DNA of 64,000 bases from positions 2,384,967 to 2,448,966 of the forward strand of contig OZ244855.1 in NCBI GenBank assembly GCA_965220975.1. The letters are read 5' to 3'. Positions 14,498 through 46,922 of the stretch are shown here, piece by piece. The DNA comes from Candidatus Poriferihabitans sp. Lineage in GTDB: Bacteria > Pseudomonadota > Gammaproteobacteria > Arenicellales > Poriferihabitantaceae. Below the pieces are notes generated by a model. That model was given only the letters and a program-made list of their open reading frames with translations, did no database searches and was not told where the DNA came from. Position numbers and translations under genes: made by a program. How positions within the stretch are numbered: position 1 is the first letter of the stretch; the number at the start of each line of letters is the position of its first letter.

Positions 14498-14530
14498 GGC
14501 AGAGGCAGTGTCTGCCGCGGTAATGATGCC
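14498..14530 (+). repeat. dyad core site a (candidate recombination site)
   Basis: The sequence is GGCAGAGGCAGTGTCTGCCGCGGTAATGATGCC. It contains the core GGCAG-TGT-CTGCC that is invariant in all six porin 5' ends. Confidence 0.8.
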
Positions 14531-15437
14531 GATTGGGGCACAGGCGGAAAGCGAATTGACGGTTTATGGCCATGTTCATAATGCGCTTGTAAGCAAGAGC
14601 TATGAAGGCGACAAGGAATCAACAACTGATATTGATAGCTTGGGATCAAGATTCGGATTCAAGGCTAACAGCGATTTAGGAAACGGGCTTATTGGACACG
14701 CTCAACTTGAAATTCAGGTTGCTGCCGATCAGTCCACAGGAAAGAACACAACCCGTCTTGGTTTTGTCGGGCTTTCCGGCGGCTTCGGCAAGGTTACTAT
14801 CGGGAGTCAGGGAGCAGCCTTCAAGGGATCGTTGCATATGGATCAGAGCATCTGGGAAGGTGGAATCGGAGGAACGACCGGAGCGCGACACTCGAATACG
14901 ATCAAGTATTCAAATGCCGTTGGCCCTCTAAGTTTGCAGGTTGACCTGACGGCTAATGACAGTGATGACAACATCCAAGGCCCTGAAGGCAATGGCGGGG
15001 CTATCGGCCTGAAAGCGTCATTGACGGACAACATTGAATTGGGTTTTGCCGCCGAAATGAAAGAGCATGAAAACATGGACAACGATTGGATCGGCGTATC
15101 TGGGAAGGTTAGCCTGGGTCAATTCTTTGGTGCTTTAGGTTGGACAAATAACGAAACAACGAAAGCCAATGGCGAAACGGATAAGGATATTGACTATACC
15201 CAATTTTGGGTAGGCGCAGATGTAGCCGATGGTACTTCAGTAATCTTTGGTTATGGCGAAAAGGATGATGGTGACGATAAAGCCACTCCCAGCGCAACCA
15301 CTTTTGGGGTATTCCACGACATAGGCGGGGGCTTGGCCGTATGGTATGAAGGACAAGTCAACGATGACGATGATGATGCGGCTGTTAATGATAATTATGA
15401 AGCAATTCACCGTATAGGACTTCGGTACATCTTCTAA
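14508..15437 (+). CDS. porin paralog a (Gram-negative porin family), lacking start codon and n-region of the signal peptide
   Basis: Porin hallmarks are present: TVYGHVHNALV, GSRFGFKANSDLGNGL and a C-terminal GLRYIF. Upstream, the frame reads stop-CGQICCTDDFPAEA-VSAAVMMPIGAQA with no ATG. The track start is the GTG of VSAAV. Confidence 0.8.
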   Translation: MSAAVMMPIGAQAESELTVYGHVHNALVSKSYEGDKESTTDIDSLGSRFGFKANSDLGNGLIGHAQLEIQVAADQSTGKNTTRLGFVGLSGGFGKVTIGSQGAAFKGSLHMDQSIWEGGIGGTTGARHSNTIKYSNAVGPLSLQVDLTANDSDDNIQGPEGNGGAIGLKASLTDNIELGFAAEMKEHENMDNDWIGVSGKVSLGQFFGALGWTNNETTKANGETDKDIDYTQFWVGADVADGTSVIFGYGEKDDGDDKATPSATTFGVFHDIGGGLAVWYEGQVNDDDDDAAVNDNYEAIHRIGLRYIF

Positions 15438-15465
15438 GCCCACTGTTATATAGAGGAAATAAACA

Positions 15466-45829: not shown

Positions 45830-45857
45830 TGTGTATTCCTCTTAAATTGAATCAGGC

Positions 45858-46922
45858 CTAGAAGTCGTAGCGGATGCCAATGTGATGGACAACTTCGTCA
45901 TCGGCACCGGCTACATCTTTATCCGTGGAACCGCCTTCGTACCAGAGCTGCAACCCGCCGCCCATGTTGTGGTACAGTCCGGCCGCAATCTTGCTTGGTT
46001 CGGCGACCACATTTTCAGTTTCTTCCGTTGAGTAGCCAAGCCATCCCGAAGTGCTGTCCGAAAAGCTCATGCCGACATAGCCGGCAACATATTCCTTGTC
46101 GGGCTGAGCCACCCCGGCACTGTCTTCCGATTCATGAGAGCTCCAGCCCAGAGCACCCCAGAACTGGCCGAACGACAGATTGGCAGAGATGCCGGCCCGG
46201 CTGTGCTCATGACCACGCGTTGTTGTTTCGCCCTTCGTTTCACGGCGATTAGTGTCATCAAGAGGGGTATTATTGGTAAAATTGGGGTTTACCTCTTTAC
46301 GGACACTGGGTGAAGTGGTAGTTACAATATCGGTTTGATCATCCACATCAAAAGCGACTGCAAGCGTGACATTCTCGGTTGCGGCAACCCGGATGCCGAT
46401 GCCGCCACCATTGCCGGACAGTTTATCCCCTTCATCGCCCTCATCACCGAGACGCAGATCCGCCTCCAGGGCCAGGGGGCCAACCGAGTTGGAATACTTG
46501 ATGGTGTTGGGAGAGCGGTAGGGAGTACCGCCGATCGGGCCAATCGTCCAGGTCGGATCAATGTCCACGCCAACCGTGTTGTAGAAGGCGGTCCACTGGT
46601 TGCCCACGTCCACCCGTCCGAAGCCGCCGGAAATGCCCGCCGTTGCGATGCGGGTAGAAGTGATTCCGTCGGCACCGTCATCGGTATTGGTACCGAACTC
46701 GTACCGGCCATGAGCGGTCAGACCATTGCCCAGATCGGAACTCGCCTTGACCCCAAACCGAGATCCAACGCCCTGAATATCGGCCGTCGAATCATTCATG
46801 CCGCCCTTGTCTTCAAGGACAATTGCGTTGTTGATCCGACCGTAGACGGTCATGTCAGCCTGTGCCCCGACGGGCATCATCACCGCGGCAGACACTGCCG
46901 CAGCCACTAAGGATTTTTTCAT
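45858..46922 (-). CDS. porin paralog f, the only copy with RBS, ATG and a complete signal peptide (expression-site candidate)
   Basis: The RBS GAGGAAA lies 8 nt upstream of the ATG at 46920-46922. The signal peptide is MKKSLVAAAVSAAVMMPVGAQA, followed by DMTVYGRINNAI, and the C-terminus is GIRYDF. An AT-rich promoter-like region lies upstream. Confidence 0.88.
   Translation of the reverse strand: MKKSLVAAAVSAAVMMPVGAQADMTVYGRINNAIVLEDKGGMNDSTADIQGVGSRFGVKASSDLGNGLTAHGRYEFGTNTDDGADGITSTRIATAGISGGFGRVDVGNQWTAFYNTVGVDIDPTWTIGPIGGTPYRSPNTIKYSNSVGPLALEADLRLGDEGDEGDKLSGNGGGIGIRVAATENVTLAVAFDVDDQTDIVTTTSPSVRKEVNPNFTNNTPLDDTNRRETKGETTTRGHEHSRAGISANLSFGQFWGALGWSSHESEDSAGVAQPDKEYVAGYVGMSFSDSTSGWLGYSTEETENVVAEPSKIAAGLYHNMGGGLQLWYEGGSTDKDVAGADDEVVHHIGIRYDF
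46873..46899 (-). repeat. dyad core site f (inside the signal-peptide coding region of the complete porin)
   Basis: The reverse complement reads GGCAGTGTCTGCCGCGGTGATGATGCC. In this copy the dyad extends to GCGGCAG-TGT-CTGCCGC. Confidence 0.8.

Follow-up and report, generated by a model that had tools for sequence, protein, structure and literature searches.

A 24-nt core at the 5′ ends of six porin cassettes as the probable joint of an inversion switch in a sponge symbiont of the Arenicellales

Pili, S-layers, mycoplasma lipoproteins and Bacteroides outer-membrane proteins are among the structures known to be varied by inversion switches that serve a single expression site. The stretch considered here (the window), 64,000 nt of contig OZ244855.1 from Candidatus Poriferihabitans sp., holds six porin genes that begin at copies of one 24-nt core, GGCAGTGTCTGCCGCGGTRATGAT, and it is this core that is compared below with the joints of described switches. 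In the sap locus of Campylobacter fetus, promoter-less surface-protein genes are clustered, a single promoter serves them, and inversion proceeds via their conserved 5′ ends. Each sap cassette is a complete open reading frame (ORF), and the near-identical 5′ sequence extends over several hundred bp; to our knowledge no dedicated invertase takes part, and the process is mostly RecA-dependent. Anaplasma msp2/p44 and Neisseria pilE/pilS combine one expression site with 5′-truncated silent copies, conserved anchors and mosaics, and vary by non-reciprocal segmental gene conversion. The silent vsa genes of Mycoplasma pulmonis lack the 5′ end of the coding region. In the mycoplasma inversion loci, a conserved recombination site is situated at the 5′ end of each gene and inversion takes place between sites in opposite orientation (PMC2268961). 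The sfx site of the R64 shufflon is built from a 12-bp variable left arm, a 7-bp core and a 12-bp conserved right arm (PMC11852207). The intragenic invertons of gut Bacteroidales have end points inside the coding region, so that inversion recodes the protein, and are mostly two-state with one inverted-repeat pair (bioRxiv 10.1101/2023.03.11.532203).

The core is matched exactly six times in the window, on strands alternating + - + - + -, at the coordinates and on the strands given in an earlier sequence-only reading of this DNA. No further match with up to 3 mismatches is present in the window, and 100 shuffles returned none. A Porin_4/Porin_1 gene begins at each core, and one to three LAGC-lipobox genes come after it; the resulting operons form three convergent pairs, a/b, c/d and e/f (Table 1). 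A ribosome-binding site, an ATG and codons 1-8 (MKKSLVAA) are found at copy f only, where the signal-peptide n-region reads MKKSLVAAAVSAAVMMPVGAQA and a conserved non-coding flank of ~870 nt lies upstream; a flank of this expression type occurs once in the window. In a-e the core is preceded by a stop codon or by unrelated sequence, leaving no usable start, and all five frames are open from the core to their stop codon. This arrangement points to a-e as silent cassettes and to f as the single expression site. The silent cassettes evolve under purifying selection, with dN/dS of 0.145 between cassette b and the b-like copy of strain L081 and of 0.19 for both d/e and b/c, which indicates that a-e are expressed at times.

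The best overall explanation is a multi-cassette inversion switch acting at the 24-mer through site-specific exchange, to which, taken as a whole, we assign a probability of about one half. Its central element, the role of the core as exchange joint in a cassette switch of the inversion type, is highly probable when considered by itself. The expression flank would supply the promoter, ribosome-binding site, ATG and first eight codons to whichever of the six porin-lipoprotein operons, all beginning at the core, faces it. Recombination between the expression-site core and an oppositely oriented core would invert the DNA between them and bring another operon behind the live start. Because the cores alternate in orientation, recombination of the f site with any plus-strand core would invert the intervening DNA; a, c or e would thus be reached by one inversion and b or d in two steps, and the alternation would survive such inversions. 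Identity of the core in all copies would follow both from exchange inside it and from the loss of expression in cassettes that no longer have the identity. The proposed site is ~30 bp long and asymmetric, with a weakly conserved left arm ending in GGCAGA, a 7-nt spacer GGCAGTG, a conserved right arm TCTGCCGCGGTR and ATGAT, and its recombinase would be encoded outside the window. Core f may be parsed in the same manner as the spacer GGCAGTG, the right arm TCTGCCGCGGTG and ATGAT.

The organization resembles the R64/IncI shufflon (Rci, sfx, pilV), in which short alternating repeats bound invertible segments, each with two convergent alternative gene ends, and whichever segment faces the constant 5′ part continues its reading frame. 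The likeness extends to the variable left arm, 7-nt spacer and conserved ~12-nt right arm, in layout only, the sequence being unrelated to sfx. In contrast to R64, the constant part here comprises just 8 codons and the promoter, the units are whole porin-lipoprotein operons of 2.7-5.6 kb with gene-filled spacers between them, and no rci-like gene stands beside the array, the nearby tyrosine recombinases belonging to integrative and conjugative elements (ICEs) or to RIT elements and insertion sequences (ISs). With M. pulmonis vsa/HvsR, M. bovis vsp and M. agalactiae vpma/Xer1 the locus has in common one expression site, several silent genes and a site at the 5′ end. Those loci carry in or beside them a recombinase gene whose role was shown genetically, whereas no linked one was found in the window; the host here is a Gram-negative sponge symbiont and the cargo consists of a porin and TbpB-like lipoproteins. 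Since the defining linked recombinase was sought and not found, the array is not classed with the shufflons or with vsa/vpma. Unlike the mostly two-state invertons of the Bacteroidales, it has six sites, the sister species having nine or more, and exchanges whole operons.

In the codon alignment of the six porins, the core codons GCA GTG TCT GCC GCG are each represented by one codon across all copies. Outside the core, 12/79 amino-acid-invariant degenerate columns use a single codon, and G11 and G413 are the only fourfold- or sixfold-degenerate columns among them. Pairwise pS between cassettes reaches 0.5-0.8, near saturation, and against this background the invariance of the core goes far beyond coding constraint, as the sequence-only reading had proposed from the absence of synonymous differences in the five core codons. 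The invariance applies to the six copies in the window and is not absolute across strains, for the expression copy of one strain (L082/L083) carries GCCGCAGTG, with one synonymous change.

The edges of the invariant block are sharp, at about -6 and +24. GCAGAG stands directly 5′ of the core in a, b, d and e, and GTGGCT(AT/GC) in c and f; the extended dyads GGCAGA-GGCAGTG-TCTGCC in a, b and e and GCGGCAG-TGT-CTGCCGC in f are likewise present as described earlier. The view that the core marks the break point of all six 5′ ends is right in that the core is shared by all and slightly loose in that a and b have ~220 nt of upstream flank in common (inverted repeats I8 and I22) and copy c shares 6 nt more with f. 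Homology links the left flank of b with the left flanks of a and of the L009 copy. Copy a alone among the six has A at core position 19. Unbroken identity with the expression site extends over 18 nt in a and 24 nt in b and c, followed by 70-85% identity.

Comparison with sister strains reveals that flanks do exchange at the core, in agreement with its earlier description as a crossover region. The window and L005 share the c-type left flank, LF_c, without a difference over 100 nt or more and through the whole 24-mer; from nt 25 on it continues into porin c in the window and into a different porin, X, in L005. Porin X is in turn 100% identical over 452 nt between L005 and L006, strains that are otherwise 99.1% identical; its flank is c-type in L005 and d-type in L006. 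Assignment of X as c-like was discarded, as sliding identity shows it to be a type of its own. Body Y occurs behind two different flanks on a single contig, and the c-type left flank is borne by at least four porin bodies (c, X, P0027 and P0031). The same expression flank precedes the expressed porin in L005, L006, L007, L082 and L083, and the porin behind this constant flank varies between strains and species (f, P0001, P0004, P0021, P0038). P0001 was first taken as a clean mosaic of an f-type 5′ and a b-type 3′ part; the BLAST extension proved misleading, and by sliding identity only the downstream lipoprotein operon is b-like. These flank comparisons place the exchanges in the core or within a few tens of bases downstream of it, strictly so only if the compared bodies are the actual partners. 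The swaps carry whole bodies, and the orientation of the cassettes fits reciprocal inversion.

A further case is provided by L082/L083 (ERZ25070844 ctg8886_194x, 106 kb), in which the expression flank and its module occur twice, inverted, at 99.8% identity, the far-end porin being joined to two different a/b-type flanks. The contig ends 589 nt into the second expression flank and probably records the route of the assembler across a spacer, between two back-to-back sites, that is polymorphic for inversion. The b/c spacer of the window (20954-27898) would itself be invertible, and it is the analogous spacer that shows the apparent inversion polymorphism in L082/L083.

The window and sister strains L003-L007 and L081-L083 together provide 16 distinct porin-linked sites. 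GCAGTGTCTGCCGC is invariant in 16/16 of these sites, with single variants only further along; GGCAGTG plus TCTGCCGC is likewise invariant, and on the left side conservation is confined to (G)GCAGA. In the sister species OZ241374, nine distinct porin-linked sites all read GCAGAG-GTCGTT-TCTGCCGCGGTGATG and alternate in orientation, bar one stretch outside the covered loci. The array occupies ~33 kb in the window and ~85-100 kb in the sister species. Distant species (L012, L063, L015, L023 and L046) retain the peptide AVSAAVM with other codons, including the synonymous core spellings GCGGTATCTGCGGCGGTAATG in L012 and GCGGTTTCCGCCGCAGTAATG in L023. Because the same peptide is spelt differently across species while the copies within a genome are identical, the constraint is on identity between copies and not on the peptide; the suggestion that the DNA itself, rather than AVSAA, is constrained is thereby borne out. 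The sequence-only reading had allowed for simple conservation of the 24-mer among porin genes of related species. The exact 22-mer has no match in 185,579 GTDB species-representative genomes, and hence the core is not simply a conserved porin 5′ end. Two metagenome matches to the core (L001, L002) lie in unrelated sequence and were set aside as chance.

More distant Poriferihabitaceae and Arenicellales genomes (L038, L039, L062; L054, L055, L058; L040; L028, L031, L035) possess complete porin paralogues with near-identical 5′ untranslated region and signal-peptide DNA within each genome. These shared 5′ ends indicate that concerted evolution of porin 5′ ends reaches beyond the clade with start-less cassettes.

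The symmetry of the core differs between the two species. The inner dyad GGCAG-TGT-CTGCC, to which the sequence-only reading gave the central place, is absent in OZ241374, where GGTCGTTTCTGCC is found in all 9 porin-linked sites seen; it is thus species-specific, and only the outer dyad GGCAGA-N7-TCTGCC, with identical arms, is conserved in both. The OZ241374 spacer GGTCGTT differs from GGCAGTG of the window at 3/7 bases, uniformly in every copy.

A porin is lacking on both sides of four quasi-palindromic sites that read GCAGAG-N5-(C/T)TCTGCC (Table 1). One of them, in L009, belongs to the window's own genome, ~210 kb away, and has the spacer GTCGTT as in the sister species. In each, a variable left flank abuts the d-type left flank in reverse complement. 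The variable left flanks differ, and homology to any partner amounts to at most 19 nt. These joints cannot be made by normal inversion. To arise, they would require a quasi-palindromic site to synapse the wrong way round, or a whole porin pair to be deleted between the 6-nt TCTGCC repeats that form the base of the inverted cores. A search for a body-body palindrome found none.

L009 also holds, at 9953-10837 and thus ~210 kb from the array in the same genome, a seventh and degenerate cassette. An a/b-type left flank precedes its core, which is present as far as GGCAGTGTCTGCCGC; the signal-peptide cleavage site and the first strand have been lost in a 57-nt in-frame deletion that comes next. 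The cassette adjoins the end of an SPI-7/pKLC102-type ICE (integrase, TraI_2, prepilin peptidase).

That the exchange is site-specific rather than homology-driven is given slightly less than an even chance. It is suggested by the sharp-edged ~30-bp block, by arms that are kept between species while the spacer changes, by the body-less sites with their limited homology, by the short identity of the expression site with a, b and c, and by the parallel of arm, 7-nt spacer and extended right arm with sfx. The strongest competitor retains the same switch and lets homology drive it, by RecA-dependent or replication-based exchange between short inverted repeats with accompanying gene conversion; we regard it as a serious, if minority, possibility. 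The core would then be the best-homogenised 5′ anchor, arbitrary in sequence, with identity between copies alone being of importance. For such exchange, 18-24 nt of identity with a, b and c followed by 70-85% is a poor RecA substrate; homogenisation around an anchor does not account well for an invariant block without any gradient at its edges, for the persistence of GGCAGA/TCTGCC across species through a change of spacer, or for four body-less sites with different left flanks.

Several observations nevertheless weigh against site-specific exchange, or against the switch as such, and most of them favour homology. Distant species with the expressed/silent layout have a different core and a different homology boundary: in L063 the two copies are nearly identical from codon 3 on over 85 nt or more, a single mismatch apart, and those of JAPYNL share GGCTGCTGCGGTTGCTGCCGCGGTG. 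Core changes between species are mostly synonymous and uniform within each genome, as drift with homogenisation would give. Some exchanges end downstream of the core, f sharing 42 identical nt with d and e although the f body is closer to b/c, and body b of the window and of L081 has 5 differences in nt 24-50 as compared to 3.7% overall. Haplotypes after the core are patchy and porin bodies mosaic (P0005 versus P0012). No inversion in a clonal population has been directly observed, the variants, of which L005/L006 and L082/L083 are compatible with inversion, being those between strains ~99-99.8% identical, in assembled contigs. Neither reading of the ORFs nor motif searches nor phmmer turned up a recombinase of the tyrosine, serine or DEDD class in the 64-kb window, and none was found for the array in five sister-strain or sister-species loci with Pfam-marked gene tables; the Pfam-marked loci (L003-L009) hold only genes of ISs, ICEs or other mobile elements, and phmmer of 13 loci retrieved a RIT trio in L014 only.

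The recombinases that were encountered do not qualify as the enzyme of the array. L006:7756-8448 is a 230-aa integrase fragment in an island absent from the window. L009:924-1934 is an SPI-7/pKLC102-type ICE integrase beside a MobH/TraI relaxase and is not Rci-like. The three adjacent tyrosine recombinase genes of L014 (2012-5562; 329, 327 and 553 aa) form a RIT (recombinase-in-trio) element that has inserted among IS remnants in the porin array of OZ241374. A recombinase domain is likewise missing from the ORFs that are conserved in the d-type flank. As no recombinase gene was found in the window or the five sister loci, the proposal of a recombinase half-site pair in the sequence-only reading can be put only conditionally.

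General recombination also reshapes the locus, as is evident from the mosaic porins, the pairings in L081 and a long inverted repeat. The latter, 17201-18247 / 41255-42301 (1047 nt, 94%), lies in the HExxH lipoprotein genes situated last in the a- and f-operons, and recombination within it would re-pair the cassettes; in strain L081 a b-like porin is paired with an e-like one. The strain-variable pairings and the repeat lend further support to homology. Porins and lipoprotein sets reassort between strains across the junction that separates them, and the expressed porin of L006 leads into the window's b-type lipoprotein operon.

The comparison with C. fetus sap is instructive in this regard, the absence of a linked invertase being compatible with a sap-like process. 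Identity here is, however, 18-42 nt followed by 50-85%, and the joint is placed inside the signal-peptide coding region. In contrast to msp2 and pilS, flanks here seem to be swapped reciprocally, and inversion is indicated by the strict alternation of orientation; gene conversion may act in addition, as the mosaic bodies suggest. With respect to gene-conversion anchors, the 5′ anchor is invariant here, while the 3′ one, a junction made up of the porin 3′ end, a short intergenic stretch and the lipoprotein signal peptide, is conserved with a longest invariant run of ~7 nt. The junction was considered as a second invariant site and rejected for want of long invariant runs.

A more specific form of the site-specific reading, in which an asymmetric sfx-like site is served by an unlinked, possibly new recombinase that flips whole porin-lipoprotein operons in Arenicellales sponge symbionts, is rather doubtful. 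Under it, the spacer would co-evolve in concert across the 7-10 sites of a genome, and the quasi-palindromic body-less sites would have a function in the switch, such as that of OFF or docking positions, because a d-type flank joined to the expression site would read ..AVSATRGF-stop.

The remaining explanations are very improbable. A passive relic, in which one 5′-truncated porin pseudogene was duplicated five times and passed on its boundary with no ongoing switching, would account for GCAGAG at the boundary in four silent copies and for left-flank families common to several species, suggestive of descent by duplication; bodies at pS 0.5-0.8 beside a core with no change, intact silent cassettes under purifying selection, and flank-body joins that differ among near-identical strains leave it little room. 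Equally remote is a mobile module, with the cores as terminal inverted repeats of each convergent porin pair and the body-less sites as empty targets. Inverted cores do bound every module, the four body-less sites resemble module-free junctions, and the spacers contain many transposases, but no transposase is consistently associated with the modules, the supposed terminal repeat is coding sequence in frame with a fixed start, no target-site duplications are seen, and flanks swap one end at a time, as in body X of L005 versus L006. The least probable explanation, a constraint on the expressed gene by its signal peptide or by an mRNA hairpin after the start that tunes translation, with no recombination, can draw on AVSAAVM as a conserved h-region even where every paralogue has its own start and on a hairpin of -9.5 kcal/mol (DNA parameters) that the f core GCGGCAG-TGT-CTGCCGC can form, and is contradicted by 5/6 copies that have no start codon and on which it cannot act in place, by other codons for the same peptide in other species, by loss of the hairpin-forming inner dyad in OZ241374, and by flanks that demonstrably reassort at the core.

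Table 1. Features of the porin array and related sites. Coordinates are those of the window unless a locus is named; silent or expressed status and the division of sites into arms and spacer are predicted from sequence.
Feature	Position	Strand	Remarks
Silent site a	14498-14527 (core 14504-14527)	+	left arm GGCAGA, spacer GGCAGTG, right arm TCTGCCGCGGTA, ATGAT
Cassette a	14505-18196	+	start-less porin to 15437; two LAGC-lipobox lipoprotein genes, 15466-16920 and 16949-18196
Cassette b	18259-20946	-	start-less porin 19903-20946; lipoprotein gene 18259-19872; converges on a
Silent site b	20924-20953 (core 20924-20947)	-	architecture as site a
Spacer between back-to-back sites b and c	20954-27898		IS256-family transposase and defence-like genes
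Silent site c	27899-27928 (core 27905-27928)	+	left arm GGCTAT; GTGGCT resembles expression flank
Cassette c	27906-31215	+	porin to 28985; two lipoprotein genes; = protein P0020
Cassette d	31893-34431	-	porin 33178-34431; lipoprotein gene; converges on c; = P0034
Silent site d	34409-34438 (core 34409-34432)	-	left arm AGCAGA; d-type left flank, conserved in OZ241374 too
Spacer between back-to-back sites d and e	34439-37465		DUF3800 gene and neighbours
Silent site e	37466-37495 (core 37472-37495)	+	left arm GGCAGA; e-type left flank, conserved in OZ241374 too
Cassette e	37473-41238	+	porin to 38738; 823-aa lipoprotein gene; = P0028
Expressed operon f	41306-46922	-	porin 45858-46922 and three downstream lipoprotein genes
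Expression-site core f	46876-46899	-	exact match; sole copy behind ribosome-binding site, ATG and MKKSLVAA
Expression flank	46900-47770	-	codons 1-8, ATG 46922-46920, GAGGAA ribosome-binding site ~46935-46930
Possible extended -10 element TGgTAATAT	~46987-46979	-	putative promoter
Porin-lipoprotein junctions	15394-15549, 19801-19954, 28934-29086, 33031-33198, 38702-38885, 45758-45901		
Body-less sites	L009 8240; L010 1096; L011 ~1415; L045 3327	L010: -	

A strict sigma-70 consensus scan of the minus strand upstream of f returned no promoter. The c-type left flank ends GTGGCTATG and the expression site GTGGCTGCG; the former may be a decayed expression flank. The a/b-type left flank (14326-14503 and 20948-21126) belongs to a repeated neighbourhood of an IS256-family transposase, of which the window has two copies, 2713-4140 (-) and 21845-23218 (+), each with a copy of a small membrane-protein ORF nearby, 11324-11695 (-) and 21172-21564 (+), respectively. 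The stretches 23453-27524 and 35585-36801 encode a ThiF/E1-like protein, an AAA ATPase, a DUF3800 protein and small unknown ORFs of defence- or toxin-antitoxin-like character, and related strains have other islands in those spacers (GmrSD, MvaI/BcnI, AbiEii, HigB). One lipoprotein of the f-operon gives a weak TbpB-type beta-barrel match. The window further contains aprBA, tyrS, lgt and ruvAB, consistent with a sulfur-oxidising gammaproteobacterium. An Rfam scan of the window gave no match, and exact database look-up of the porin f protein, with either start, retrieved no record.

The purpose of such a switch is likely variation of the dominant surface-exposed proteins in the face of phage or host recognition. 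No report was found in the literature of an inversion switch that exchanges a major porin together with TbpB-like surface lipoproteins, or of such switches in sponge symbionts. The change of spacer between conserved arms, the body-less sites and the lack of a linked enzyme offer a handle on the question of site-specific versus homology-driven exchange. Such arrays can also mislead metagenome assemblers, as the inverted duplication of ctg8886 suggests. If the switch is real, uncultured symbionts, whether vertically or environmentally maintained, invest tens of kilobases in surface variation, and the size of the array would point to strong pressure from phage or host recognition.

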